From a virus (lineage: Duplodnaviria > Caudoviricetes), in IMG/VR virus record IMGVR_UViG_3300001580_000017, positions 11,066 to 75,065 of that record: a stretch of 64,000 nucleotides of DNA, one strand, 5' to 3'. Below are positions 1,270 through 58,905 of the stretch, in pieces; the first letter of the stretch is position 1, and each line of letters opens with the position of its first letter. A program made the position numbers and the translations under genes. The notes beneath the pieces are model-generated. The model searched no databases. It was not told where the DNA came from and was given only the letters and a program-made list of their open reading frames with translations.

Positions 1270-1277
1270 TATAAATA
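1270..1277 (+). promoter_or_regulatory. Late promoter TATAAATA 6 nt upstream of tnpB-like ORF
   Basis: Exact motif; ATG at 1284; no SD between them. Confidence 0.65.
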
Positions 1278-1283
1278 TATTAT

Positions 1284-2674
1284 ATGAAGACAATTAAACT
1301 GCCGCACATAATGAGCAAAGAAAATAATGATCTTTTGTGTAAATATAGAAGAGAACAATCTTCAGCAATTCGTTTTTCTTTTAATAGATTGGCAGAAAAT
1401 AAAACCGACAAAGAAATTAGATCATTAATTAAATCACTAAATTATAATCATATAGATTCATGGCTCAGTGTATGTTCTATTTTGAAAGCCAAACAATTTT
1501 ATTCTACAGCAAAACAGCAAAAACAAAACAAAGTTATTTTTGCTCGTTCCTCGTTTATAGAATTAAATGCTAAAAAAATAACAAAAGAAGAATTTAAACA
1601 AAAAAGACTGTTTAATTTGTGTATAGATGGTGAGGCTCTGTACAAAGGAAACAGAAAAGTTAATTTAAACATAGAAAAAAATAATTCTATAACTATAAAA
1701 TTATCAAAAAAAGACCACATAGAAATAAAATTACCGAAATTAAAGAAATCTTTCAAAAGACAGTTATTATTATTATTAGAAAAGTTGGCAAATAACAAAA
1801 TAATTCCTTTTAAAATAGAGTTAAATGAAAATTTTATTTATTTTTCTTTTGAGTCAAACGAAATACAACGAAAGAAAAATATGCTAAAAAAGCCGCGACA
1901 AAAACGGAAATTAGAAAAAAAATTAATGATGAGTTAAAACTAATAGAAAGTCATCAATCAAAATTTATACTCGGTATAGATATGAATCCAAATTATATTG
2001 GATTATCGGTTCTAAAATTCTATAACCCAAATGATAAAGATAGTTTTAAAATTATAGAAAAACAAGTCATAGAATTTACGGAATTAAATCAAAGAAAAAA
2101 TAAAACATCAACAGAAAATATTTCCATAAATAATAAGAAAAAATTTGAAATTATTCAAGTAGTTCATAAAATAATTAAATTGGCAAAACATTATAATTGT
2201 TCTAAGATTGCAATAGAAGACCTTAATATAAAATGTGGTGATAGCAGAAAAGGAAAGAACTTTAACAGATTTTGTAATAATATTTGGCACAGGGAATTAT
2301 TCATAAACAAACTAAAAATGTTGTGTACAGAATTTGGTATAGAATTAGTGGAAGTTAATCCTGTATATAGTTCTACTATAGGCAATATAAATTATGGAAA
2401 TGAATATACACCCGATATGGTAGCTTCAAGTATTGAAGTTGCTCGTAGAGGATTTAATAAATATATAAAAGGATGGTTCTACCCAAAACTGATGATTAGA
2501 AATAAGCTAAACCAATGGAAGGAAGAGGTTGATTTTAGTCGGGGTTGGGTTGCTATCCACGAACAAATTAAAAAATCTAAAGTGAAATATAGGTTTCCTC
2601 TTGTTCCTGAGTTATTCCGTGAGGTTTTTAGAAATAGTTCTGCAAAGAGTAAAGTTTTGGTTTATAAAACTTAA
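1284..2674 (+). pseudogene. tnpB: TnpB-related RuvC nuclease (type lacking the zinc finger), split by a one-base frameshift between about 1853 and 1922
   Basis: ORF 1284-1937 is a TnpB N-half; the -1 frame is open from 1853 and gives ILGIDMNPNYIG (RuvC-I), IAIEDL (RuvC-II), VNPVYSS..IG and PDMVASSIEVARRG (RuvC-III); total length 1391 = 3n+2. Confidence 0.75.
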
Positions 2675-25102: not shown

Positions 25103-27085
25103 TTATCCTCCTATTATTTTTTTTAATTCTTCTTCTGTTATCATTTTCACATTATTCATTTTTGCCTTCGTTGTTTTATCTTCTCCGGGGCTTGATCCGA
25201 CCAATAAGTAATCAGTCTTTTTGCTCACACCAGAAGCAGGTATTCCTCCATGTTGTTTTATTATGTTTTCATAAGATTTTCTGTCTTTGGTTAATGTTCC
25301 GGTAATACAGATTTTTTTATCTTTAAGTTTGTCTGATAAAAATTCCTGTTTCTTTGGTTCAGTTATTCTTATCACATCGTTCATCTCGTTGTAAAAATTT
25401 CTGATATTGTTTTTATTTTGAAGAACAATCATCGCCGTTTCTTCTCCGATTCCATCTATCTGCTCCAAGTTATCATATGTAGCAAAAGTCAATAAAGATG
25501 GAATGTTTCCAAATTTGTTTAACAGAATTTCAACCGTTTTTTCTCCGATATCCTCTATATTACATCCCATCAAAATATGCCAATGATTTAGATCAACAGA
25601 ATTTTTCATTATCGCTGTTATAATATCATTCGCAGATTTTACCCCATAACCGTCAAGAGCGGAAATATCATAATCATTCAATGTATAAAAATCTTTCGGA
25701 TGTTTTATGAGTTTGTTGTTATACAGGTCTAATACCGTTTTATCCGATATTCCTTTAGCATTGATGACCTTTATCCACTTATTCAACTTGCCGAGTTCTC
25801 TTGAGCTACAATCATTGTTTGGACACCTTAGAAATGATCCCTCAACTTTTCCATCAGGAGAATTTATTAGATTTTTAATTAATTCTGATCCACACAATGG
25901 GCAATTTTTTGGTGGTGTATATTCGCCATTCTGAACAATAGTGACTTCGTGTTTCGGAATAACATCTCCTGATCTCGTAATTCCTATGATAGCACCAACA
26001 TTAACATGATGTTCTTTTATGTACTCAATATTATGAAGTGTTACTCTACTAATTGTTGCTCCATCTACCTCAACCGGTTCAATCAAAGCTACAAAAGACA
26101 TTCTGCCGTTTCCTGATATTTCCGTTACTATATCTATTACTGGTGTAGCAACAATATCTCCTTTTATTTTAAATGCAACTTTGTGTTCCGGATCGCTATC
26201 GGTATATTGATGAGTCGATGTATCATCCAAACAAAAAACAAGTCCATCACATTTTATATCAAATGAATCTTTTTTTGATTTAAAATATTCTATGGCTTCA
26301 ATTATATGTTCATCTGTTATACAATATTCGACGGCGGGAACATCAAAATTCATATTTTCGAGTAGGCAGAATTTATCAATTTCTTTTATGAGTGTGTGAT
26401 TCAAAATATCATAAGCAATGAATTGTGTATAAGCAATTAAATCATGATCAGCTTTTCTTTGTGGATTTATGAGACCGGGAATTATATTTCTTTCTGACTT
26501 TGGAATTTTTAAATTTCTTTTTTTCATTTCCTCTTTAAGTAATTCAAAATTTTTTGAACTTATAACAATTTCTCCTCTGATCTCTGTTCTTTGATTTGGA
26601 AAATTTGCTCTTATTGAACGAGGAAGGTATTGAATATATTCGGTGGCATGAATTATATTTTTTCCTTTGAAACCGTCTCCTCTTGTGGAAGCTTCTATTA
26701 ATTCTCCATTCACATATATAAGAGAGCAGGAACAACCATCAAGTTTATTGGAAGCAACAACGGCTTTATTTGCGGTGTAATGAGTTTTGCTTGTTCTCCA
26801 TTCCAGTAATTCGTTTATATTATCTTTTCCATTTTTTTTGTCTTTTATTTTATGCAGACTCATCATCGGTGTAGAGTGATTTATTTCCAAATCTTTTTCC
26901 AAACCAACAATTGAAAATACTTTGCTGTGAGGAAATAAATGTTTTCCGAGTTCTTCAAAAGCATCAAATTCTTCATCAGTTATTAATGGTTCTTCGTTAT
27001 CGTATGCTTCTTTGTATTCAATATACTTTTTTTCAAATTCTTCTAAACTTAGTGAATACTGATTCTGAATTGCTGTTGTTATCAT
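25103..27085 (-). CDS. ligA: NAD-dependent DNA ligase
   Basis: HSTPMMSL, KLDG, EIRGE, DGLV, AFK, RSGDVIP, C4 zinc finger, HhH, BRCT (ITGTL...VSKKTDYLLVG). Confidence 0.95.
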   Translation of the reverse strand: MITTAIQNQYSLSLEEFEKKYIEYKEAYDNEEPLITDEEFDAFEELGKHLFPHSKVFSIVGLEKDLEINHSTPMMSLHKIKDKKNGKDNINELLEWRTSKTHYTANKAVVASNKLDGCSCSLIYVNGELIEASTRGDGFKGKNIIHATEYIQYLPRSIRANFPNQRTEIRGEIVISSKNFELLKEEMKKRNLKIPKSERNIIPGLINPQRKADHDLIAYTQFIAYDILNHTLIKEIDKFCLLENMNFDVPAVEYCITDEHIIEAIEYFKSKKDSFDIKCDGLVFCLDDTSTHQYTDSDPEHKVAFKIKGDIVATPVIDIVTEISGNGRMSFVALIEPVEVDGATISRVTLHNIEYIKEHHVNVGAIIGITRSGDVIPKHEVTIVQNGEYTPPKNCPLCGSELIKNLINSPDGKVEGSFLRCPNNDCSSRELGKLNKWIKVINAKGISDKTVLDLYNNKLIKHPKDFYTLNDYDISALDGYGVKSANDIITAIMKNSVDLNHWHILMGCNIEDIGEKTVEILLNKFGNIPSLLTFATYDNLEQIDGIGEETAMIVLQNKNNIRNFYNEMNDVIRITEPKKQEFLSDKLKDKKICITGTLTKDRKSYENIIKQHGGIPASGVSKKTDYLLVGSSPGEDKTTKAKMNNVKMITEEELKKIIGG

Positions 27086-27110
27086 TTATCTTTCTCCCTT
27101 ATTTGTAAGT

Positions 27111-27278
27111 TTATTTCTTTGATTGTTCGTATATATTTAAAACTGCAAATGGTGTGTATATTATCCAAAAAATCATATCCATAGCATTATATCCAGTTAG
27201 ATATGTTATCGCCAGCGTAACTGCAATTAAATATATTAAACCATACAACATTGTTATTATTCCTTCAACATGTTTCAT
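27111..27278 (-). CDS. 55-aa membrane protein (not in the ORF track)
   Basis: Manual translation MKHVEGIITMLYGLIYLIAVTLAITYLTG...; SD GAGGGG; early promoter upstream. Confidence 0.6.
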   Translation of the reverse strand: MKHVEGIITMLYGLIYLIAVTLAITYLTGYNAMDMIFWIIYTPFAVLNIYEQSKK

Positions 27279-27356
27279 TTTTATCTTTCCCCTCTTAATT
27301 GTAATTTAAATTTTTCGTTGTATTTTCCGCCACTACAATTTCCCAGAACAGAAGGA

Positions 27357-27385
27357 AATATACATAATTTTTATTCAAATGTCAA
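27357..27385 (-). promoter_or_regulatory. Sigma70-type early promoter
   Basis: TTGACA-N17-TATATT. Confidence 0.85.
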
Positions 27386-27403
27386 GTAAAAAGATTAAAA
27401 TTT

Positions 27404-27411
27404 TATAAATA
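27404..27411 (+). promoter_or_regulatory. Late promoter 5 nt upstream of tnpB
   Basis: Exact TATAAATA; no SD. Confidence 0.7.
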
Positions 27412-27416
27412 AAGAT

Positions 27417-28637
27417 ATGATAAGAACAAGCAAGCATATATTAAAATTCGCTAACAAAAATAAATTAGATATGCTTGAACAAATTTATTCTGATTGCAAG
27501 AAACAAATTGAAGTTTATATTGATCAAATTGTATCCGATAAACTTGAATTAAAAAAGATGATGAGTAGTAAGTTATTATCAAATGAATATATCGAGCAAT
27601 CTAAATGGAAACAAATGTGTTATGAACAAACATCAGAAATAATAAGAAGTCAGTATAAAAAAGCATCAAATAAAAGATTTAATGTTTACAAAAAGATTTA
27701 TGCTAAATTAAAAGAACAAAATAGATATAATAAATTTATATCAAAGAAATTCTCCGAGTTAAATTTAAAACCAATTCAAACCACGAAATACTTAACTAAA
27801 CCGAAATTAAATAATATCAGTATTATTATTCATCCGGAATTACTAAATTTTACATCTGACTCCAACAACTTTGATTCTTTTGTGAGATTAACTGCACCAT
27901 ATAAAAAGAAAACAAATAAAATAAGAAATCACTATCAAACCATCAATCTTCCAATCAAGTATCATTCTCAATCAAATAAATTTAGAACTTCTGGTTGGAA
28001 GTTAAAGAACTCTATTTCTTTGATCAAAGTCAATAATAATTTCTATTTTGATCTATTTTGGGAGAAGGAAGAAGTTGTGAAGAAAGTAAAAGGAAAGCAA
28101 ATAGGATTAGATTGCGGTTACAAAAAATTACTCATTTCATCGGATAATAAAATTTATGATTTGGGTTTAGAAAAAATCTATGAGAAGTTATCAAGAAAGA
28201 AACAAGGATCAAAGAATTTTAAACAAGCTTTAACCGAAAGAGATAATCTAATAAATCAAAGTATAAACAAACTCGAAACAGAAGAAATAAAAATAATTGT
28301 AGTTGAAGATTTAAAGAATGTAAAGGCAGGAAGTAAGTTTAGTAAAAAATTTAACAATAAGCTACAGAGATGGAGTTATCCAAAGGTTTTGAATAAACTA
28401 TCTATGATTTGTGAGGAACAAGGTATTAATTTAGTTAGAGTTGATCCTGCTTATACAAGTCAAACATGTAGTGGGTGTGGATTTAAAGATAAAGACAATC
28501 GTAAAGCCGAGAAGTTTTTATGTTTGGGTTGTGGATATGAAACTGATAGTGATTATAATGCTTCAGTGAATATTCTACATAGAGGCATATATAGTTCCTC
28601 TACCGAGAATAATAAAGCTAATTTAAAGGTTAGCTGA
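27417..28637 (+). CDS. tnpB: TnpB RNA-guided endonuclease (IS607-type), no transposase
   Basis: GLDCGY, VVEDL, PAYTSQTCSGC, CLGC, DSDYNAS; D-E-D triad intact. Confidence 0.92.
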   Translation: MIRTSKHILKFANKNKLDMLEQIYSDCKKQIEVYIDQIVSDKLELKKMMSSKLLSNEYIEQSKWKQMCYEQTSEIIRSQYKKASNKRFNVYKKIYAKLKEQNRYNKFISKKFSELNLKPIQTTKYLTKPKLNNISIIIHPELLNFTSDSNNFDSFVRLTAPYKKKTNKIRNHYQTINLPIKYHSQSNKFRTSGWKLKNSISLIKVNNNFYFDLFWEKEEVVKKVKGKQIGLDCGYKKLLISSDNKIYDLGLEKIYEKLSRKKQGSKNFKQALTERDNLINQSINKLETEEIKIIVVEDLKNVKAGSKFSKKFNNKLQRWSYPKVLNKLSMICEEQGINLVRVDPAYTSQTCSGCGFKDKDNRKAEKFLCLGCGYETDSDYNASVNILHRGIYSSSTENNKANLKVS

Positions 28638-28641
28638 CTGT
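28579..28641 (+). ncRNA. 3' part of omegaRNA scaffold / element right end
   Basis: Near-identical to 44131-44187; hairpins TAGAGG/CCTCTA and AGCTAA/TTAGCT; identity stops after CTGACTGT. Confidence 0.7.
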
Positions 28642-28727
28642 GAATCAAAATCGAATTTATAATTTTCAGATGATAAATACTGCTCGATGAGTGCTGTTGC
28701 TAAATTTCTTGCATCAATTAGATTCAT
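28623..28727 (-). pseudogene. Truncated SprT-like gene N-terminus interrupted by the tnpB element
   Basis: Manual translation MNLIDARNLATALIEQYLSSENYKFDFD then element-derived SQSANL*; SD GAGG; resembles the N-terminus of phage SprT-like peptidases. Confidence 0.5.
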
Positions 28728-28908
28728 GAAATGCCTCTATTGCTGTATTATTTATCCAGTCAACATACCAATATAATTTTCCATTGATATAGCTGCTATC
28801 GGATTTCGCGAGTTTAGTTGAACATTTGGGGCAATTAAAATTTATATTCGCATGTTCTGGTTCGGGTAGTTCTGATATAGTATCACATATTAAACATTTT
28901 ATTTTCAA
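28714..28908 (-). CDS. Zinc-ribbon protein
   Basis: CLIC...CPKC. Confidence 0.55.
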   Translation of the reverse strand: MKIKCLICDTISELPEPEHANINFNCPKCSTKLAKSDSSYINGKLYWYVDWINNTAIEAFHESN

Positions 28909-28909
28909 T

Positions 28910-29125
28910 TTAGTTTCCTTGCAGGTTAAACATTTCTTTTATTTTTGCAATTATCTTTATAGCTTCTGATTCAGTCATAGACATTGATGACCACTGATAT
29001 CCGTTGTGGGTGATAGACAATATTTTTTGATCAGATGATAGTTTGTTGTGTTCAATTTCTTCTCTGACAGCAAATGACTTCTCTCTGTGTTGTTTCATTT
29101 CTTCTTTAAAATCTTGGTCTATCAT
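28910..29125 (-). CDS. Hypothetical early protein
   Basis: Start reassigned to MIDQD by SD GGAGAG and promoter 29154-29182. Confidence 0.6.
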   Translation of the reverse strand: MIDQDFKEEMKQHREKSFAVREEIEHNKLSSDQKILSITHNGYQWSSMSMTESEAIKIIAKIKEMFNLQGN

Positions 29126-29153
29126 TTTTCTCTCCTGTTTTAAATTCAATAGT

Positions 29154-29182
29154 AATATAAGAATAATTTGATTAAATGTCAA
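29154..29182 (-). promoter_or_regulatory. Sigma70-type early promoter
   Basis: TTGACA-N17-TATATT. Confidence 0.8.
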
Positions 29183-29204
29183 ATAAATAATTAATCAATT
29201 TTAA

Positions 29205-29396
29205 CTATTTATTATAATGCATAGGACACCAAATAATTACATCCTTCTCGTTTCTTTCTATTGGATGTACTTTTTTTAATTCAATAATTTCTTCATCGGG
29301 GTATAAATCAAACATTGGGCATGTAAATTGATCTTTACATGTAAAACAAATTCCATTCTGAGACCACATTTCAATTTTTAATTTATGAGTTTTCAT
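29205..29396 (-). CDS. Small Cys-rich hypothetical protein
   Basis: CFTC...CP...WCP; SD GGAGAG. Confidence 0.55.
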   Translation of the reverse strand: MKTHKLKIEMWSQNGICFTCKDQFTCPMFDLYPDEEIIELKKVHPIERNEKDVIIWCPMHYNK

Positions 29397-29413
29397 TTGT
29401 TCTCTCCTTTAAG

Positions 29414-29647
29414 TTAAATTACGCTACTCATACTATCCACTATTAAAACTTTTGTTTCTTTACTTTTATTTTTCAACATGACATCTGCTATTATTTTATC
29501 ACAATAATCTTTTGTTGCTATCATGTTTTTTGGAATTATTGTCTTTGGTTCTCCTCCAGTCAGATTAACAATCAAATCGCCATATTGTTCTACTTCATAA
29601 ATTACAGTATCGCCATTATCGTTTTGTTCTGCTACCATTTTTATCAT
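29414..29647 (-). CDS. Hypothetical early protein
   Basis: SD GGAG, promoter upstream. Confidence 0.6.
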   Translation of the reverse strand: MIKMVAEQNDNGDTVIYEVEQYGDLIVNLTGGEPKTIIPKNMIATKDYCDKIIADVMLKNKSKETKVLIVDSMSSVI

Positions 29648-29675
29648 TGTTTTCTCCTTGCTGTTGATTTACGGT

Positions 29676-29704
29676 AATATACATAATATTTTTTCAGATG
29701 TCAA
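29676..29704 (-). promoter_or_regulatory. Sigma70-type early promoter
   Basis: TTGACA-N17-TATATT. Confidence 0.8.
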
Positions 29705-29717
29705 GCTTTTTGTTGAG

Positions 29718-29748
29718 AAAAATAAAAACCCATCGAAAAAGATGGGTT
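29718..29748 (-). terminator. Intrinsic terminator
   Basis: AACCCATC/GATGGGTT stem with T-rich tail on minus strand. Confidence 0.75.
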
Positions 29749-29780
29749 GTAGAGTAGTGATGCTAAATAAATTTTATTTA

Positions 29781-30281
29781 TTATTCTTTATGATATGTAT
29801 CCAACCCAGTTTTAAGTTCATCTTGAAGTTCTTCCAGATACTCTTTTTCAAATTCTAAATTAAAATCTCGCAAATGGCGCAAGGAAGTACCATGTTTTTT
29901 GAAATCTATGATGTCATTTTGAATTTCTTCAATTTCATCTTTTATAGAATCTTCTTTTAATTTTAAAAGTTTTTTCAAAAAACTCAAGTCAGATTGTGAA
30001 ACTTTTCTTCGTTTCGCTTGTTCTACCCAATCTCTATATTCTTTTAACTGAGCATCTGATCCCAGCATTGCTTCTTCAATTGTATCTTGAATTTCTTGTA
30101 TATCATCTTCACTTGTCCATCCTATATATTTAGCAATTTGTGATATAGTTTTACCATTCAAAAAACTATCTACTATTGCTCCAGTAAAATCATGTTCATC
30201 AGTGTATTCATCATAGTATTTATCATAAAAATCACTTTCAAGAACTATGTCAGAATATGCTTCTATTAATTTGTTACTCAT
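29781..30281 (-). CDS. Acidic hypothetical late protein, capsid-targeting-like N-terminus
   Basis: MSNKLIEAYSDIVLES; TATAAATA at 30300-30307. Confidence 0.6.
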   Translation of the reverse strand: MSNKLIEAYSDIVLESDFYDKYYDEYTDEHDFTGAIVDSFLNGKTISQIAKYIGWTSEDDIQEIQDTIEEAMLGSDAQLKEYRDWVEQAKRRKVSQSDLSFLKKLLKLKEDSIKDEIEEIQNDIIDFKKHGTSLRHLRDFNLEFEKEYLEELQDELKTGLDTYHKE

Positions 30282-30302
30282 TTTAAATCCTTTTCTCTTT
30301 AT

Positions 30303-31205
30303 TTATAAAATATCCAAAAAAGTTTCTTTGGTTGGTTCGCCATCTAATATATATGGTATGATTTCTTTGTAATTTAATTTATCCATACAGTAATCATAAA
30401 TTTTTGGATGAGTAGTTTTCATTTTATCAAACCTGTTGGGGCAACCATCTTTTTGTAAGCCGTATAAACACCACATACAGCCAGTTCTCGTGTATCCCTT
30501 ATCGTAAATAGAAGAATATTTTAAATTATATTTTTTAATATATTCCCATATATCTGTTTCATTCCAAAACGACAACGGTGCACTCGTGGCTCTTTTCTTG
30601 TCAAAGGCATTACACCCATATTTGATCCATTGCATTTTTCTCATTTCTGATTCTGATGCCATTGTTCCAATAATAGGATGAACTTCGTTTTCTTTTTCAT
30701 AATTTTTCAGTGGATTTTTCTTTAAATAATCACAGCATTTATCGCTGATTTTGAATGGAGCATCTAAAAGAAACATCCATTTTTTTGAAACTGATCCTCT
30801 TCCACCATTAGTTCTGTATAATCTTAATTTTTCACTTTTGGTGTTTCTTGCTTCATCAATATAATTAGATTGTTCCTTACTCACAACGGGATATCCATAT
30901 TTTTCTATTATTTTGTTGAATGGTACTTTCGGTTTAATTATATCAACATTTGGAACGGTATTAACAAATTCCACTATTTCTGGAAATTCTAATCCCGTGT
31001 TACAAAAAACTGCTTTCATGTTTGGATAAATTCTTCGACATAAATGTAGCAGAACAGTAGAATCTTTTCCTCCAGAGAAAGAACAGTAAACATCTCCCTT
31101 GAAATGTTCATAAAACTCTCTTATTCTTAATAAAGTTTTTTGTTCTTTTATTTCTAATGGAAGCTTAAACATCCACTGATTACTACTTTTTTCTGTTGCC
31201 ATCAT
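30303..31205 (-). CDS. PAPS-reductase-family (PP-loop) protein
   Basis: SFSGGKDSTVL, FCNTGLEFPE, KCCDYLKK, RTGCMWC. Confidence 0.88.
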   Translation of the reverse strand: MMATEKSSNQWMFKLPLEIKEQKTLLRIREFYEHFKGDVYCSFSGGKDSTVLLHLCRRIYPNMKAVFCNTGLEFPEIVEFVNTVPNVDIIKPKVPFNKIIEKYGYPVVSKEQSNYIDEARNTKSEKLRLYRTNGGRGSVSKKWMFLLDAPFKISDKCCDYLKKNPLKNYEKENEVHPIIGTMASESEMRKMQWIKYGCNAFDKKRATSAPLSFWNETDIWEYIKKYNLKYSSIYDKGYTRTGCMWCLYGLQKDGCPNRFDKMKTTHPKIYDYCMDKLNYKEIIPYILDGEPTKETFLDIL

Positions 31206-34218: not shown

Positions 34219-35235
34219 TTAAAAAATCAATTTCTCGTATCTGTTGTAAGATAAACCCAATGTATTCATTAAAACCATTATTTCCCACAAACATTGCTTA
34301 TCTTCTGCTCCACCAATTATAGTTGCTCCATCAAAATCTTTTAAAATATTAAAATCAAAATTTGGAAGTGCTATAACGATATCTTCATTTTTTAATTCTG
34401 TTTTTATTTTATCGGGAAGTTCCATGTTTTGAATATCTTCATCAGTCAATTCATCAGTGGAGAAATGATAGTTATTCATCAGATACAATAATATAGCTTG
34501 AATGTATTCCTCTGCTACATTATTATCAAGATCACGAATAAATCCATAACCCTTTTCAACCCAAATAATCCTATTCAAAAATTCATCCATTTCTTCACTG
34601 AAATCATTCGCAGAATTTTTTATCCAGTTTTTGATATCATGTTCTTTATCCAAATTCATCAAAGTTCCATTATAGAAGTAAATAATATCGCCCTTGAATT
34701 TTTTCAAAGATAAAGCGAACTGCTCTGGGGTAAATCCAAATCCTTTCGTGTATTGAGGTTGAATATCCACAACAATTAGTTTATCGCCGGTTATCTTGAA
34801 ATAACTGTTTCCGTGAATAATGTTTTGATCCTTGGCAAAACGAATTATATCAATGTAATCTTTTGCTATTTTTGATTCCATTATTTCTTGAGCGATTGGA
34901 GAATAAAATCCATTTTGCGCTTTACCATGAAAATCCAAAGGTGTGATTGTATATCCATCCCAATTAAAATCTTTTTCCACTATATCAGGAAGATAGCCAA
35001 AACATTTTTCTATATCAGGTATTCCATAGCCAGTGACCAAGTATAAATTTCCGTTATTTGTGTTGAACATAAACCTGCCACTATTTCCTATGAATATTTT
35101 TAGATAAATATTTCCGGGGATAACCTGAATGGTGTCTGGAGATTTATCGATGTTTGTGTCTTTCTCATTATACTTTAATATTTTTTGAGAAAGCTGGGTT
35201 ATAAATTTATCAAACTCGGATTTAAACTTCATCAT
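34219..35235 (-). CDS. Multi-domain hypothetical late protein
   Basis: EIMESK linker; downstream of TATAAATA 35422-35429. Confidence 0.55.
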   Translation of the reverse strand: MMKFKSEFDKFITQLSQKILKYNEKDTNIDKSPDTIQVIPGNIYLKIFIGNSGRFMFNTNNGNLYLVTGYGIPDIEKCFGYLPDIVEKDFNWDGYTITPLDFHGKAQNGFYSPIAQEIMESKIAKDYIDIIRFAKDQNIIHGNSYFKITGDKLIVVDIQPQYTKGFGFTPEQFALSLKKFKGDIIYFYNGTLMNLDKEHDIKNWIKNSANDFSEEMDEFLNRIIWVEKGYGFIRDLDNNVAEEYIQAILLYLMNNYHFSTDELTDEDIQNMELPDKIKTELKNEDIVIALPNFDFNILKDFDGATIIGGAEDKQCLWEIMVLMNTLGLSYNRYEKLIF

Positions 35236-35443
35236 TTGTGTAGGTTTTATTCTCCATATAATTTTTCATAGCTTTCATCCAGTTGTCTGCTATATCATTT
35301 ATTACTTTAGCATCATAATCTGTAACAAACAACCCGCCAGTATATTCTTCCCAAAAAAGAGAATTTTGGGCTTTTATTTTTGTTGTTGGAGATTGTTTGC
35401 TTGGCTTAGTTTTCATATCATTATTTATAATAATTTCTTCCAT
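35222..35443 (-). CDS. Hypothetical protein (true start possibly 35416)
   Basis: Short ORF; late promoter lies in its first codons. Confidence 0.45.
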   Translation of the reverse strand: MEEIIINNDMKTKPSKQSPTTKIKAQNSLFWEEYTGGLFVTDYDAKVINDIADNWMKAMKNYMENKTYTNDEV

Positions 35444-42647: not shown

Positions 42648-42774
42648 AAAGTCATACCCCAAATATACCATTATTATTTATAAAAGTCAAGAATAATTTA
42701 ATTTATTTTGAAAATAGTTAAAATAATTTTATGACCCCCATCAAAAATTTTATAAATAAGGTTATAGAATAATT

Positions 42775-42987
42775 ATGGAAGAAATTATGAAAAAATTATC
42801 AGAATATGCAACTGAACACAACATCACATATCGTACCGCATGGAATCATTTTGCGCGAGGATTAATTAGTGGAGCATATCAGCTATCAAATGGCACAGTA
42901 GTTATACCGGACAGCAATACTGCCGATTTAGAAAAAGCTATACATGATTTAAAAAATATAATTACAGAATTAAAAAAAGATAAATGA
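42775..42987 (+). CDS. IS607 TnpA N-terminal MerR-like HTH only (serine recombinase domain absent)
   Basis: MKKLSEYA...ITYRTAWNHF..G.I.GAYQLSNGTVVIP followed by a short coiled coil. Confidence 0.8.
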   Translation: MEEIMKKLSEYATEHNITYRTAWNHFARGLISGAYQLSNGTVVIPDSNTADLEKAIHDLKNIITELKKDK

Positions 42988-44183
42988 TAAGAAGAAGCAA
43001 ACACATACTAAAATTCGCGAACAAAAATAAATTGAGTATGCTTGAACAAATTTATTCGGATTGCAAGAAACAAATTGAAGTTTACATTGATCAGATAATA
43101 TCAGGGAAATTAGAGTTAAAGAAGATGCCGAGCAGTAGGTTGTTGAGTAATGAATATATCGAACAATCTAAGTGGAAAGAAATGTGCTATCAACAAATGA
43201 CAGGAATGATTGGAAGTCAATATAAACGCGCATCCAATAAAAGATTTAATTCTTATAAAAAAGTTTATGCTAAACTAAAAGAACAAAATAGATATAATAA
43301 ATTTACTTCAAAAAAATTCTCGGAATTAAATTTAAAACCAATCTATCAAACAAAATATTTTACTAAACCAAAATTAACTGGTGTAAATATAATAGTACAC
43401 AAAGATTTATTTAATTTTGCATCGGATTCTAAAAATTTTGACTCCTTTGTTAGATTAACTACTCCATATAAAAAATCAGCAGGAAGATACAAAACAATAA
43501 ATCTTCCAATTAAATATCATTCTCATTCCAATAAATTTAGAACGAGTGGTTGGAAATTAAAGAACTCTATTTCTTTGATCAAAGTCAATAATAATTTCTA
43601 CATTGATTTGTTATGGGAAAAAGAAGTCCCCAAGAAGATTGAAGGAGAATCCATCGGATTAGATTGTGGTTACAAGAAGCTACTTATTTCATCAGAGAAC
43701 AAAATTTATGATTTGGGTATGGAAAAAATTTATAACAAACTAAACAGAAAGAAACAAGGAAGCAAAAACTTTAAGCAAGCATTAACCGAAAGAGATAATT
43801 TAATAAATCAGAGTATAAACAAGATTGAAACAGAAAATATAAAAACAATCGTAGTCGAAGATTTAAAAAATGTAAAGTTAGGAAGTAAGTTTAGTAAAAA
43901 ATTTAATAACAAGCTACAGAGATGGAGTTATCCAAAGGTTTTGAATAAACTATCTATGATTTGTGAGGAACAAGGAATAAACTTGGTTAGAGTTGATCCG
44001 AGTTATACAAGTCAAACATGTAGCAAATGTGGACACAAAGATAAGAAAAACCGTTCTGGTGAACGGTTTTTGTGTTTGAGTTGTGGAATGGAGATGGATG
44101 CTGACTATAATGCATCTATAAACATTTTACATAGAGGCATATATAGTTCCTCTACCGATAAAGCTAATTTAAAGGTTAGCTGA
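42984..44183 (+). CDS. tnpB: TnpB RNA-guided endonuclease (close paralogue of 27417..28637)
   Basis: GLDCGY, VVEDL, TSQTCSKC, CLSC, DADYNAS. Confidence 0.92.
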   Translation: MIRRSKHILKFANKNKLSMLEQIYSDCKKQIEVYIDQIISGKLELKKMPSSRLLSNEYIEQSKWKEMCYQQMTGMIGSQYKRASNKRFNSYKKVYAKLKEQNRYNKFTSKKFSELNLKPIYQTKYFTKPKLTGVNIIVHKDLFNFASDSKNFDSFVRLTTPYKKSAGRYKTINLPIKYHSHSNKFRTSGWKLKNSISLIKVNNNFYIDLLWEKEVPKKIEGESIGLDCGYKKLLISSENKIYDLGMEKIYNKLNRKKQGSKNFKQALTERDNLINQSINKIETENIKTIVVEDLKNVKLGSKFSKKFNNKLQRWSYPKVLNKLSMICEEQGINLVRVDPSYTSQTCSKCGHKDKKNRSGERFLCLSCGMEMDADYNASINILHRGIYSSSTDKANLKVS

Positions 44184-44187
44184 CTGT
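44131..44187 (+). ncRNA. 3' part of omegaRNA scaffold / element right end
   Basis: Shared with 28579-28641; two hairpins. Confidence 0.7.
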
Positions 44188-44200
44188 AAAGTTTGACGGT

Positions 44201-44229
44201 AATATAACCTTTTAATTCCTGAATGTCAA
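44201..44229 (-). promoter_or_regulatory. Sigma70-type early promoter pointing antisense into omegaRNA/tnpB
   Basis: TTGACA-N17-TATATT. Confidence 0.8.
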
Positions 44230-50647: not shown

Positions 50648-50943
50648 TTATCTGTGCTCCCAATTCCACCGGTTCTTTCTTCTACTGTTTCGTCACCATC
50701 AGCCACTAAATACTTCTCAAAAACTCCTTGAGCTATTTTTTCTCCTTTGGTTATTAATCTTGGACATTTACCAAAATTATGTAATGCTACGGCGATGTTC
50801 CCGTTGTTATTTTCGTTGTTATGATAATCACAATTATGCAGACATAAATTATTTCCAAAAAAATTGTGATTTTTATCAACATTAATGTGATAAATTGGTT
50901 CAGTTGTCGTTTGTTTAATTTCTTTGATTTTCACAAATTTCAT
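50644..50943 (-). CDS. dut: Split-intein C-half (37 aa) fused to dUTPase C-extein (62 aa)
   Basis: MKFVKIKEI...IYHINVDKNHNFFGNNLCLHN|CDY...GEKIAQG...RTGGIGST (dUTPase motifs III-V). Confidence 0.9.
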   Translation of the reverse strand: MKFVKIKEIKQTTTEPIYHINVDKNHNFFGNNLCLHNCDYHNNENNNGNIAVALHNFGKCPRLITKGEKIAQGVFEKYLVADGDETVEERTGGIGSTDK

Positions 50944-51967
50944 TTATTTTCTCCTTTAATTTAATTATGTATTCTTCTTTTTCTTCAAAATCATTTTCCC
51001 ATAAGACTAATACTATATATCCCATATTTTGTAAAAATAATTTTTTCTGATTATCGTATTCCCAAATATCTGATGCGGTCTTTTGTATTTTAGAATGAAA
51101 ATAACTCGCATCATATATTACCGGATTACAATGCCAATAATCACCATTACATTCAATAATAATTTTTTTATCTAACAAACAAATATCAACAAATAATTTT
51201 CGAGTTTCATTTTTAACACACATCTCTACCTCAACATTGAATCCGTGCTCTTTTAATTTATCAAATATATATTTTTGCCATTTTGATATTCTTTTTGCAC
51301 CAAATCTCTTATTGCTACACACAAGAGAACAATATGTATGATTTTCACATTTTGTAGTTGTAAATTCATTATTACATGTTGGGCAAATTTTAATCAATCT
51401 TCCGATATCGTGTTTACATTTTTTAGAACAAAAACTTACATTTTTTCTATATGGGTGAACTTCAAAAATATTTTTACACACTATACACACTTTTTTTATT
51501 AATCTCTTTTCTTGGTTTGATTGAAATTTTAAATCCTTGTGTTTTTGCCTGTATGCTGACCAACAAGCAATTGAGCAACATCTTTGATTTGCATTTTGTG
51601 AATATACAGTAAATAGATTACCGCAGTTAATACAATTTCTTTTAACTGGAGGAACACGGTTGTTTTTGCCACTACAGATTTTGCTACAAAATTTTTTATT
51701 TTTAGTTTCTTTGCCACATTTATAACAGAATCGTGTTTTGCTGCGGTTATAACACGAGACGGAACAATATTTTTTAGATTTATCCCATTCTGTAACTTTG
51801 AACATGGTATCACAAAATAAACATTTTTTAATTTCATTGTGTGGAGATTTGTGTTCCCAATAACACGCGGTTGAACAATAATTTGCTGTGTTTTTTCTGT
51901 ATAACGGCACATAAAATTCATTTCCACATCCAATACAAGATTTTGTTACTCCATTTTTCGCACTCAT
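50915..51967 (-). CDS. Free-standing homing endonuclease: six CxxC...(Y/F)CSxxC zinc repeats + Vsr-like (EDxHD/DUF559) domain
   Basis: FVDI...IIIECNGDYWH...EYD...GYIVLVLWE; own late promoter at 52001-52008. Confidence 0.85.
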   Translation of the reverse strand: MSAKNGVTKSCIGCGNEFYVPLYRKNTANYCSTACYWEHKSPHNEIKKCLFCDTMFKVTEWDKSKKYCSVSCYNRSKTRFCYKCGKETKNKKFCSKICSGKNNRVPPVKRNCINCGNLFTVYSQNANQRCCSIACWSAYRQKHKDLKFQSNQEKRLIKKVCIVCKNIFEVHPYRKNVSFCSKKCKHDIGRLIKICPTCNNEFTTTKCENHTYCSLVCSNKRFGAKRISKWQKYIFDKLKEHGFNVEVEMCVKNETRKLFVDICLLDKKIIIECNGDYWHCNPVIYDASYFHSKIQKTASDIWEYDNQKKLFLQNMGYIVLVLWENDFEEKEEYIIKLKEKINEICENQRN

Positions 51968-56067: not shown

Positions 56068-56156
56068 GTATTTTGTTTTAATTTTTATAAATAAAGATAT
56101 ACGATTTCAGAGAAACGAAAATTTCATTATACATTTTCCTCCTGAAACAATCAAAT

Positions 56157-56176
56157 GGCGGGGTATTTACTCCGCC
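56157..56176 (-). terminator. Terminator-like hairpin over the gp55 stop codon
   Basis: GGCGGAGTA/TACCCCGCC stem followed by ATTTGATTGTTT. Confidence 0.55.
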
Positions 56177-56928
56177 GAATCATTTATAGAAAGAGAAGAA
56201 TCAGACGAAGAACATGGGGCGAGTTCTGCCGCAATACTTTTATCCCCTCTTTTAAAATTTTCATAAACTTCACTATCTTCATCCATCATTTGCTGTTCTA
56301 ATTCGTTTATATAATCACTAATATCTTCGCCGTTGTTGTAATCATAATTCAACATCTTATCATTCGCAACGAATCTTTTTACATATTCAAATTTATTTCT
56401 GAATAGTTTTTTCTCTGCTGCGATTTCCTGTAAGAAAGCATGATAAACACTTTTTGTGAAATACCAGAATGGACTTTTAAATTTCTCTGTATCAAATTTC
56501 TGCAATCCGCTCATACAGTGTTCCATTGCTAATAATTTCATATCTTCCAAATAAGAATATCCCCGGTATTTATGGAGTGTGGCATAATGATCTATAATTG
56601 ACATAATATTTACACCAATTCTGTTGTGCATCAATTTATAATCTCTTTTTTCTTTTGAAGATAATGTTAAATCATTTAATTTTATTGTATATTGGTCTAT
56701 AAGAATTTCATGTTCTGTTACCAATTTATTAACTTTGGGGATTGATCTTGAGTTTTTTTCTAATACTTCTTTAATTCTGGATTTGTTGGTTTCAATTGCT
56801 TCGGATAAAATTTCAATATTATCTAATCTGATTTTCAATTTCTGCCAGTTGACCATATCATTATAAAATTCTTTGTCGTTGATATAATGACTGCTTTTGT
56901 TTTTTGTTGTTTTTTCTTCACACTTCAT
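56167..56928 (-). CDS. gp55: Late-transcription sigma factor gp55
   Basis: HYINDKEFY, IG..IM.I, YRGYSYLEDM, FDTEKFKSPFWYFT...AFLQEI..EKK. Confidence 0.9.
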   Translation of the reverse strand: MKCEEKTTKNKSSHYINDKEFYNDMVNWQKLKIRLDNIEILSEAIETNKSRIKEVLEKNSRSIPKVNKLVTEHEILIDQYTIKLNDLTLSSKEKRDYKLMHNRIGVNIMSIIDHYATLHKYRGYSYLEDMKLLAMEHCMSGLQKFDTEKFKSPFWYFTKSVYHAFLQEIAAEKKLFRNKFEYVKRFVANDKMLNYDYNNGEDISDYINELEQQMMDEDSEVYENFKRGDKSIAAELAPCSSSDSSLSINDSAE

Positions 56929-57204: not shown

Positions 57205-58905
57205 ATGACAACACAATATGAAAGAAAGAAAGTAGAACTGATATGTAAGTATTGCAATGAAATATTCTATCACGAAAATCACTTTAAAATGAGTTGCGGA
57301 AAACCTGAATGTGAAGAAGCTAAAAGAAGATTAAAAGGGCAGAAGATAGCAAATTCCGCTTCCAAAGTTTCAAAAGAGGATAAACATAAACGAATTGAAA
57401 AAAGAAATAAAACCATGATAAACAAATATGGAGTATATAATTTAATGAAAACCCCCGAAGGCAAACAGCGTTATTCTGATCTATGGAAAAATAAAACCAA
57501 AGAGGAAATTGATACAATTCAAGAGAAAATTAGAAACACTTGTCAGGAAAAATTTGGAGTAGATAATTACGCGAAAACGGATGAACATAAACTTAGGCAA
57601 AAAGAAATATGGGAAAATAAACCACAAGAAGAAAAAGATGAGATAAACAATAAAAAAATTCAAACAAGCATTGAATTATATGGAGTGGAACATCCCATGA
57701 AATCGCCAGCGGTGTTGGAGAAACGAGTTCAAACTAATCTTGAAAAATATGGCGAGATTCATCCACTTAAAACTCCAGAAGTGAAACAACATTTACGGGA
57801 TTCATATAAAGAGAAATATGGCGTGGATCACCCTATGAAAGATAAAGAAATTTGCGATAAATGCCACGAAAAAGTTAAAGAATTTTATGATAATAAAATA
57901 TACACCAAAGTTTGCCCGGTATGTAATTTGGAATTTACCACAACTTTTGATAAACACAAAAAACAAAAGTATTGTTCTGATATATGTAAGAAAGAATCCG
58001 AAAAAATCAGACTAAGAAAAATAAAAGAAACAAAGAAAGAAATATACGGTGATGAAAATTATACCAACATAGATAAAATGAAAATTTCTTGGAATAATAA
58101 AACACCCGAAGAATTAGAAGAAATAAAACAAAAACATGTAAAGTATTATATGGATAAATATGGTGTGAGTTGTTTCTCTAAAACTGAGGAATTTAAAGAA
58201 AAATTTAAACAAATATGTTTAGATTTATATGGTGTAGAAAATGTATTTCAAAATGAAGAAATAAAACAAAAAATAAGAGAAGCCAATATAGAAAAATATG
58301 GTGTTGATCATTTTATGAAAACGGATGAAGGAAAAAATGTTATTTCGGAAATATATAATAGTAAATCACAAGAAGAAAAAGATGCTATAACAGAAAAAGT
58401 TAAAGAAACCAATTTGGAAAAATACGGAACAGTTGCTCCTTTGCAAAATGAAGAGATAAAAAGCAAAGTTAAAAAAACTTGTATGAATAGATACGGAGTA
58501 AATAATCCTATGCAGTGTGAAGAAATATTCAATAAATCAATTCATAACAGCAAACAATGGAAAAACTATATTCTTCCATCGGGCAAAGAAATAAAAATTC
58601 AAGGATATGAATGGATATATCTGGATGAATATTTTAACGAAGGTAAATTAGAGGAAAATATAATAATTCATCCAACTCAAGATATTATAGGCAAAATATG
58701 GTATTATACTGCGGATGGTAAGAAACACAAATATTATCCCGATTTTTATATTCCAACAGAAAATAAAATAGTAGAAGTTAAATCTACATGGACTATGAAA
58801 CGAGATTTAGAAATAAATTCACTCAAACAAAAAGCCTGTATAGAAGCTGGCTATAATTTTGATTTGTATGTGTATGATAATCGCAAGAATAGAATATTAT
58901 GTTAA
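57205..58905 (+). CDS. Putative homing endonuclease: about 10 (K/L)YGV helical repeats, zinc ribbons, C-terminal PD-(D/E)XK domain
   Basis: Repeats of T.LEKYGV.HP; YYPDFYIP...IVEVKS. Confidence 0.8.
   Translation: MTTQYERKKVELICKYCNEIFYHENHFKMSCGKPECEEAKRRLKGQKIANSASKVSKEDKHKRIEKRNKTMINKYGVYNLMKTPEGKQRYSDLWKNKTKEEIDTIQEKIRNTCQEKFGVDNYAKTDEHKLRQKEIWENKPQEEKDEINNKKIQTSIELYGVEHPMKSPAVLEKRVQTNLEKYGEIHPLKTPEVKQHLRDSYKEKYGVDHPMKDKEICDKCHEKVKEFYDNKIYTKVCPVCNLEFTTTFDKHKKQKYCSDICKKESEKIRLRKIKETKKEIYGDENYTNIDKMKISWNNKTPEELEEIKQKHVKYYMDKYGVSCFSKTEEFKEKFKQICLDLYGVENVFQNEEIKQKIREANIEKYGVDHFMKTDEGKNVISEIYNSKSQEEKDAITEKVKETNLEKYGTVAPLQNEEIKSKVKKTCMNRYGVNNPMQCEEIFNKSIHNSKQWKNYILPSGKEIKIQGYEWIYLDEYFNEGKLEENIIIHPTQDIIGKIWYYTADGKKHKYYPDFYIPTENKIVEVKSTWTMKRDLEINSLKQKACIEAGYNFDLYVYDNRKNRILC

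Follow-up and report, generated by a model that had tools for sequence, protein, structure and literature searches.

The tnpB locus and its product

The window analysed here is the whole stretch of 64,000 nt corresponding to positions 11,066-75,065 of IMG/VR record IMGVR_UViG_3300001580_000017, and belongs to a 75-kb IMG/VR contig (G000, G0 in coordinates) of a large uncultured phage that is a distant relative of T4. A second IMG/VR contig of 88 kb (G001, G1 in coordinates) has almost nothing in common with the first besides copies of tnpB, and the two contigs together are referred to below as 163 kb of phage sequence. At the locus under study, a tnpB gene (copy A) and its expression signals lie between a divergent early promoter and a truncated convergent ORF:

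27357-27385 (-): divergent early promoter of the sigma-70 type (TTGACA-17-TATATT), serving a 55-aa gene and an NAD ligase gene
27402-27412 (+): extended promoter word TTTATAAATAA, upstream of copy A
27404-27411 (+): late-type promoter TATAAATA, followed by AAGAT and then by the ATG of copy A (gap of 5 nt)
27417-28637 (+): tnpB copy A, 406 aa, with the RuvC triad D232/E297/D379 and the CxxC..CxxC zinc finger intact
28580-28602 (+): hairpin 1 of the presumed omegaRNA scaffold (TAGAGG...CCTCTA), within the codons for HRGIYSSST
28616-28641 (+): hairpin 2 (arms AGCTAATT/GGTTAGCT) and the terminal GACTGT, forming the right end of the element
28642-28661 (+): predicted guide template of copy A (GAATCAAAATCGAATTTATA), drawn from the flank, with a probable length of 16-20 nt
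28623-28727 (-): truncated convergent ORF, with 29 codons in the flank (MNLIDARNLATALIEQYLSSENYKFDFDS) and 5 codons plus the stop in the element end

Copy A is antisense to nearly every neighbouring gene. Its product scored 103 bits against the NCBIfam model guided_TnpB (cut-off 100; residues 60-389), contained the Pfam zinc-finger domain Cas12f1-like_TNB (2e-19) and matched phrog_506 (9.5e-31), and on these profile matches it is assigned to the TnpB family. It failed the NCBIfam models IS607_TnpB (30 bits, cut-off 350) and IS200_TnpB (47.6 bits, cut-off 425). In a 15-sequence alignment that reached down to relatives at 49% identity, the residues D232, E297, D379, C351, C354, C369 and C372 were invariant, and the E and third-D motifs lined up with those of solved Cas12f/TnpB chains. 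An earlier note on this DNA had read the gene as a TnpB with an intact D-E-D triad, and both the domain matches (guided_TnpB and Cas12f1-like_TNB) and the invariance of the triad and the zinc cysteines in the 15 sequences bear this out.

A family of old tnpB paralogues

The phage carries at least seven tnpB paralogues, two of which are in the window, four on the second contig and one on a third. Copies A, B and C were found together on one 128-kb contig of an ENA sample, and a 71-kb contig of the same sample carries the seventh copy, with sheath-like genes on either side of it. This linkage points to a single phage of roughly 200 kb or more as the source of the IMG/VR and ENA contigs. The second copy in the window is annotated as follows:

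42984-44187 (+, including the right end): tnpB copy B, 399 aa, 82% identical to copy A and with the same right end
44188-44207 (+): guide template of copy B, directly after the right end

We compared the paralogues with one another and found identities of about 80%, the closest pair being no nearer than about 84%. Pairwise dS values were 0.7-1.2 (about 0.9, near saturation) and dN/dS values 0.12-0.17, and the ORFs were intact in all seven copies. Because of these dS and dN/dS values, the paralogues appear to be old and to have been maintained by purifying selection, rather than to result from transposition in the recent past. The dN/dS values, the invariant catalytic residues and the hairpin covariation described below all support selection for a functional nuclease. 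As judged from gene contexts and the late promoter word, the nuclease genes lie between conserved phage genes and are headed by phage-type promoters; the remaining copies occupy intergenic spots or the ends of genes.

A third, very distant TnpB-like unit was noticed at 1270-2674 (+) of the window. It comprises a 217-aa ORF (1284-1937), with TATAAATA located 6 nt before its ATG, and a second ORF of 230 aa (1982-2674) with the RuvC-like motifs GIDMN and IAIEDL. The unit showed 46% identity to copy A over 57 aa and a weak match to phrog_506, and no zinc-finger domain was found in it; it may be split or degenerate.

Derivation from IS607 and loss of the transposase

Relatives of copy A at 36-52% identity were preceded by a protein of 187-200 aa with an HTH and a Resolvase domain, which is the arrangement of IS607 with its serine-recombinase TnpA. 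Upstream of copy B, the corresponding position is occupied by a much shorter ORF:

42751-42758 (+): TATAAATA of the copy B operon, before the HTH ORF and tnpB
42775-42987 (+): 70-aa HTH ORF, corresponding to the N-terminal HTH domain of an IS607-type TnpA and missing the catalytic domain

This ORF showed 72% identity over 43 aa to the N-terminal end (first 43 residues) of the TnpA (Pfam Resolvase) of one relative, L103, and a homologue of the ORF precedes copy D. Neither PF00239 (Resolvase) nor PF01797 (Y1/HUH TnpA) was detected in G000 or G001 (163 kb). Copy A had been described in the earlier note as a solo tnpB with no transposase. The lack of a transposase domain was upheld for the 163 kb, but the word solo does not fit a gene that is one of at least seven paralogues, two of which (B and D) are accompanied by a 70-aa transposase remnant. 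These comparisons indicate that the tnpB family derived from IS607, and that nothing is left of the recombinase in copies A, C, E, F and G, whereas its 70-aa HTH domain survives in copies B and D.

Given this ancestry, the copies could be IS607 derivatives that have lost their autonomy but are still mobilized by a serine recombinase acting in trans, encoded by the host or by a part of the phage outside the sequenced contigs; TnpB would then perform only the usual 'restorative' homing after excision. Such movement would suit two observations: the more distant relatives include complete IS607-type elements, and solo copies with 99% identity to one another occupy different sites in large gut-phage contigs. 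The inspected genome amounts to only about 163 kb plus 21 kb. However, those 163 kb contain no recombinase domain, the recombinase of copies B and D is reduced to its HTH domain, and nothing conserved was seen upstream of the promoter in the closest copies that could represent a left end. In addition, the divergence of the copies (none closer than about 84%, dS of about 0.9) implies that no transposition has taken place recently in this phage. We regard mobilization in trans as quite unlikely.

The solo copies from gut phages deserve a separate description. Four human-gut metagenome contigs of 89-195 kb (L094-L097) each carry a solo tnpB that is 42% identical to copy A, lacks TnpA and has a left end of about 125 nt. 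Because these copies are 99% identical to one another and occupy different flanks, solo members of the wider family must have moved recently in other large phages.

Right end, predicted omegaRNA scaffold and guides

Copy A has a sharp right end at ...GCTGACTGT (28641), with unique flank beyond it. The terminal ...GGTTAGCTGACTGT was identical in six of the seven copies, the seventh ending in ...TGTTAGCTGACTGT, and the sequence past the right end was different in every one of the seven. The conserved end followed by a copy-specific flank, which had been noted for copy A from its own sequence, is therefore a property of the whole set (6/7 ends identical, all flanks completely divergent). The final ~65 nt of the ORF were nearly invariant among the paralogues, although dS is about 0.9 elsewhere, and fold into two hairpins followed by GACTGT; the TGA stop codon of copy A (28635-28637) lies inside the segment formed by hairpin 2 and the right end. 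We compared the 3' architecture of 80 further family members from metagenomes, and found that it recurs with the terminus ..ACTAT, ..ACTGT or ..ACCAT. Near-identical elements at different sites diverge exactly past this terminal word.

Hairpin 1 was evaluated with a covariance model of 62 aligned sequences, 60 of them distinct. Paired bases were present in 97.5% of cells, and 44 cells had changes on both sides, compared with 8.4 in shuffled alignments (none of 500 shuffles reached 44). When the partner columns were shifted by 1-3 positions as a control, the scores were far lower. Some of the compensatory changes alter the protein (e.g. AGA/TCT to ATG/CAT). Because hairpin 1 covaries within the conserved 3' coding end, the hairpin block fits an omegaRNA scaffold that overlaps the end of the gene. 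No known RNA family of Rfam, RAGATH-18 included, was matched at E-values up to 1 in the window from 26000 to 30500.

The combination of a common right end with a unique flank in each copy also supports the view, put forward in the earlier note, that the guide is taken from the flank. Over the first 16 nt, no self-target of a guide with at most one mismatch was found in G0 or G1 (163 kb), so that in the available sequence of these contigs the guides match only their own flank; the closest second match to the guide of copy A in the 163 kb has two mismatches over the first 16 nt. The guide of copy F spans the start codon of the next gene. For copy G, the guide (AAGGTATTATTTTTGT) has a 15/16 match 120 nt downstream in the same AT-rich spacer (L019:10971-11110), which could be due to chance, a local duplication or a decoy.

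A late promoter fused to the tnpB genes

Copy A has no SD sequence, the space between TATAAATA and the ATG being too short for one. Both the position of TATAAATA 5 nt before the ATG (27404-27411, then AAGAT) and the lack of an SD had been pointed out earlier, and both were confirmed. The TATAAATA box of T4 promoters extends from about -13 to about -6. A box at this distance, combined with a gap of 5 nt, would place the transcription start at the A of the ATG, and the mRNA of copy A is predicted to be leaderless.

We examined how this signal is used elsewhere in the phage. The extended word TTTATAAATAA occurred 14 times in the window against 0.74 expected (about 19-fold enrichment), and the plain TATAAATA occurred 55 times in 163 kb. 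On both contigs, many genes are preceded by TTTATAAATAA at a distance of 18-56 nt that leaves room for an intervening SD sequence, which is present; the genes headed in this manner include those of the major head protein and the portal protein. TATAAATA also heads many non-structural genes, which weakens a reading of the promoter as 'late only'. A candidate for the cognate sigma factor is encoded in the window:

56167-56928 (-): gp55-like late sigma factor (match to T4 gp55, E 4.3e-11; phrog_234 'late sigma transcription factor', 1.2e-25)

This gp55-like factor is the likely reader of the TATAAATA promoters. Among the closest family members examined, 13 of 15 had TATAAATA 5-7 nt before the ATG, namely five copies of this phage (A, C, E, F and G) together with eight relatives from other contigs, which are 65-71% identical. 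In copies B and D, the promoter stands before the small HTH ORF and not directly before tnpB. Family members that retain the layout of promoter, 5-7 nt and ATG span 65-84% identity and come from different phages, and many of them lie antisense among unrelated genes. Since the gap is kept in relatives amid unrelated contexts, the late promoter belongs to the tnpB cassette. We also considered whether an element might have landed behind a pre-existing late promoter, and rejected this: the promoter travels with the gene, and no same-strand gene follows in copy A or in the relatives L021, L023 and L024. The proposal of the earlier note that tnpB has been integrated into the late programme of the phage thus gains support at the sequence level from the 19-fold enrichment, the head and portal genes, the gp55-like factor and the layout in 13 of 15 relatives.

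The same layout was found before a protein-guided nuclease. A GIY-YIG-type homing endonuclease on the second contig G1 (L015:12414-13514, minus strand; 367 aa; phrog_314 and phrog_5123) has TATAAATA exactly 5 nt before its ATG, as in the tnpB copies, and the 5-nt layout was also observed for a 173-aa gene (L015:8373-8891) and for a 64-aa gene at 35225-35416 of the window.

Against this background, the copies might also be regarded as inert relics of old insertions that the phage tolerates, with the likeness to a promoter arising as a by-product of AT-rich DNA. AT-rich genomes do yield many TATA-like words, of which the 55 plain TATAAATA occurrences in 163 kb may be an example, and the function of the cassettes is read from their sequences. 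However, the reading frame is unbroken in all seven copies, dN/dS stays at 0.12-0.17 even though dS is near saturation, and neither the catalytic nor the zinc residues vary. The right end and the hairpin are conserved, with covariation, and the extended promoter word is 19-fold enriched and keeps its distance from the ATG in 13 of the 15 relatives. We consider inert relics very unlikely.

Several further sites with this promoter word were recorded in the window. At 57205-58905 (+), a 566-aa homing endonuclease (phrog_3339) adjoins the major head gene behind a TATAAATA word, and at 50918-51967 (-) a 350-aa HNH/Vsr-like protein is encoded by a free-standing endonuclease gene behind another. The repeat family of the 566-aa endonuclease is also present at contig ends (G0 68.5-69.7 kb, G1 45.7-46.3 kb and L019 1-700), and these repeats probably break the assemblies. 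At 56084-56180 (+), an orphan late-promoter word, TTTATAAATAAAGATAT, is directed antisense into the gp55-like gene, with no ORF behind it. Copies A, E and G have the first 15 nt after its TTT at their left end too, and a CCTCC-containing stretch and a GC hairpin lie downstream. This site could specify a short antisense or regulatory RNA, or could be the scar of a lost cassette.

Flanking sequences and the search for an empty site

The ATG of the truncated convergent ORF overlaps the end of an upstream 64-aa gene, and the predicted guide of copy A (28642-28661) lies within the last flank codons of the ORF. The guide was thus correctly placed, in the earlier note, inside the 5' stub of an opposite-strand ORF (starting at 28727 on the minus strand). 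The label 'SprT-like' given there to the 29-codon stub found no support in Pfam, PHROGs, a genome search with PF10263, tblastn or a protein atlas. No match of the stub to PF10263/SprT was obtained at E-values up to 10, a query of 29 aa being too short for a firm negative; tblastn against phages returned only a spurious match (E=6), and the protein atlas gave only YbjN-type leads, below 0.9, with no family assignment.

Joining the left and right flanks of copy A did not restore a longer gene, which indicates that the locus did not arise by a clean insertion and that at least one deletion or imprecise event was involved. No cassette-free allele of the copy A locus, and no relative with the same locus, was found in the searched collections: the adjacent NAD ligase had no close relative in IMG/VR, the word formed by the guide plus flank had no other exact match in IMG/VR, and the adjoining 64-aa gene had no homologue among 5.8 billion proteins. 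The left flanks of the 15 close copies, and those of near-identical relative pairs, contained no consensus TAM, and neither GG nor AGGAG was seen beside the left boundaries.

The -35 box of a divergent early promoter adjoins 6 of the 15 closest copies, which makes shuffling of promoter cassettes conceivable; the copies could have been moved about by recombination between such cassettes rather than by nuclease-driven homing. Repeated intergenic modules of ~60 nt, in which an early promoter on the minus strand (TTGACA-17-TATATT) is paired with a late promoter on the plus strand, were observed at 27354-27414 of the window and at G1:6835-6895, and also at 29154-29182, with 87-89% identity at distant loci. 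The module at G1:6835-6895 stands without tnpB. These modules resemble the mobile promoter cassettes of T4-type phages.

Comparison with known systems and possible function

IS607 TnpB-omegaRNA systems, which are OMEGA systems with restorative homing, share with the phage cassettes the nuclease domains, a scaffold that overlaps the 3' end of the gene, a guide formed by the first bases of the right flank and, in the relatives at 36-52% identity, an adjacent serine-recombinase TnpA. A 2026 review (PMC13565253) describes IS607 with an omegaRNA of the RAGATH-18 type, a G-rich TAM and a GG target. The phage cassettes differ in having no TnpA, recognisable left end, RAGATH-18 match, G-rich TAM or GG target, in being old and diverged, and in the late promoter fused 5 nt from the ATG.

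TnpB-only IS elements have previously been reported in T4-like Campylobacter phages (PMC2853527, 2010). These elements, ISCaje1-3 of the IS200/IS605 group in CP220 and CPt10, likewise occur as several TnpB-only copies at differing sites in an AT-rich phage related to T4. However, they are of the IS605 type, are 95-97% similar between phages, which indicates recent mobility, and use an ATTTT target; only part of copy A aligns with them, at ~27% identity, and a late-promoter fusion is absent from the published account (PMC2853527). TldR proteins, which according to the TldR papers are phage-borne relatives of TnpB acting as regulators, resemble the cassettes in being phage-encoded with an adjacent fixed guide, but have lost the RuvC catalytic residues that are invariant in the tnpB copies. 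As far as sequence features can tell, the cassette is neither an autonomous IS607 or IS605 element nor, since its RuvC triad is intact, a TldR.

The closest parallel, by analogy of layout and expression signals, is with the free-standing homing endonucleases of T4-type phages. The seg, mob and I-TevI genes of T4 also form several diverged nuclease paralogues among phage genes, some of them antisense to their neighbours. The intron endonucleases of T4 are synthesized late, from late promoters of their own (PMC2988022), and in I-TevI to I-TevIII the promoter is directly upstream (PMC2988022), as in the tnpB copies. The two systems differ in that the T4 endonucleases recognize their site by protein, whereas the tnpB cassettes would use an RNA guide and a TAM, and in that self-immunity stems from polymorphism in T4 but would stem, in the tnpB cassettes, from an insertion that splits the TAM from the target.

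We accordingly propose the following explanation. The copies would be tnpB-omegaRNA cassettes descended from insertion sequences of the IS607 type (serine-recombinase TnpA plus TnpB). In the late phase of infection, host polymerase carrying the phage sigma factor would initiate at the A of the ATG, or directly beside it, and produce a leaderless mRNA. The last ~65 nt of the ORF would double as the RNA scaffold (two hairpins and GACTGT), and read-through into the flank would supply a guide of 16-20 nt that is different for each copy. By analogy with known systems, the TnpB-RNA complex would cut the site matched by its guide in cassette-free relatives infecting the same cell, while the carrier would be immune, its TAM being separated from the target by the cassette. 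Repair of the break from the carrier genome would result in homing with co-conversion or marker exclusion, similar to T4 seg/mob.

For this explanation as a whole, in which late-promoter tnpB-omegaRNA cassettes derived from IS607 persist and spread as homing nucleases, we see an approximately even chance, and the same holds for the homing function taken separately. Counted against it are the absence of RAGATH-18, a G-rich TAM and GG, the lack of a cassette-free allele in the searched collections and of a consistent TAM in the left flanks, the deletion or imprecise event at the copy A locus, the TATAAATA words before many non-structural genes and the early promoter boxes beside 6 of the 15 closest copies. 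A broader statement appears possible but falls somewhat short of an even chance: that in a T4-like lineage, IS607 TnpB-omegaRNA units have become standing RNA-guided homing or exclusion nucleases, which are bound to their locus by a flank guide and expressed as late leaderless mRNAs of the gp55 type, with the transposase discarded or reduced to its HTH domain. If true, the seg/mob system would have its first RNA-guided counterpart here.

Domestication for the benefit of the phage has to be weighed as well. The nucleases might exclude competitors too diverged for repair, create recombinogenic breaks or exert RNA-guided repression similar to that of TldR. A benefit of this kind would agree with the long retention of many paralogues and with the HTH-only partners of copies B and D and of copies in another large contig, and there are precedents in an intron endonuclease serving phage-phage competition (cited in PMC13565253) and in the regulators of the TldR papers. 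However, the intact RuvC triad makes a TldR-like role unlikely, and in the sequence available no guide matches anything but its own flank. Killing and homing are moreover compatible, so that this reading overlaps with the homing explanation; as a separate account we consider it unlikely.

With regard to novelty, TnpB-only elements in T4-like Campylobacter phages have already been published (PMC2853527), and the review of 2026 already names 'non-restorative homing', in which TnpB elements enter co-infecting phages (PMC13565253). According to the same review, TnpB acts in bacteria as a homing nuclease and, on plasmids, as a gene drive (PMC13565253). TnpB is known to favour the inheritance of its transposon in bacteria and on plasmids, whereas homing between co-infecting viruses has only been proposed. 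What is new here is a diverged, multi-copy tnpB family in one phage, together with its conserved fusion to a gp55-type late promoter with a predicted leaderless start and its IS607 origin with HTH-only remnants. As a natural test case the family is clean: no transposase confounds the result, each of the seven guides has a defined predicted target, both the promoter class and the sigma factor have been identified, and a protein-guided endonuclease with the same signal provides an internal comparison. The route seen from IS607 to a promoter-fused, immobile, RNA-guided nuclease gene also bears on the domestication of TnpB.

The HTH-only transposase remnants may represent a new partner protein. 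A further instance was observed on a 188-kb metagenome contig (Ga0172380_10000095) with three diverged tnpB copies (L081, L090 and L091), two of which are preceded by a 55-56-aa ORF of the MerR/HTH_17 type and no full TnpA. Here, transposase remnants consisting only of the HTH accompany tnpB independently of the phage described above.
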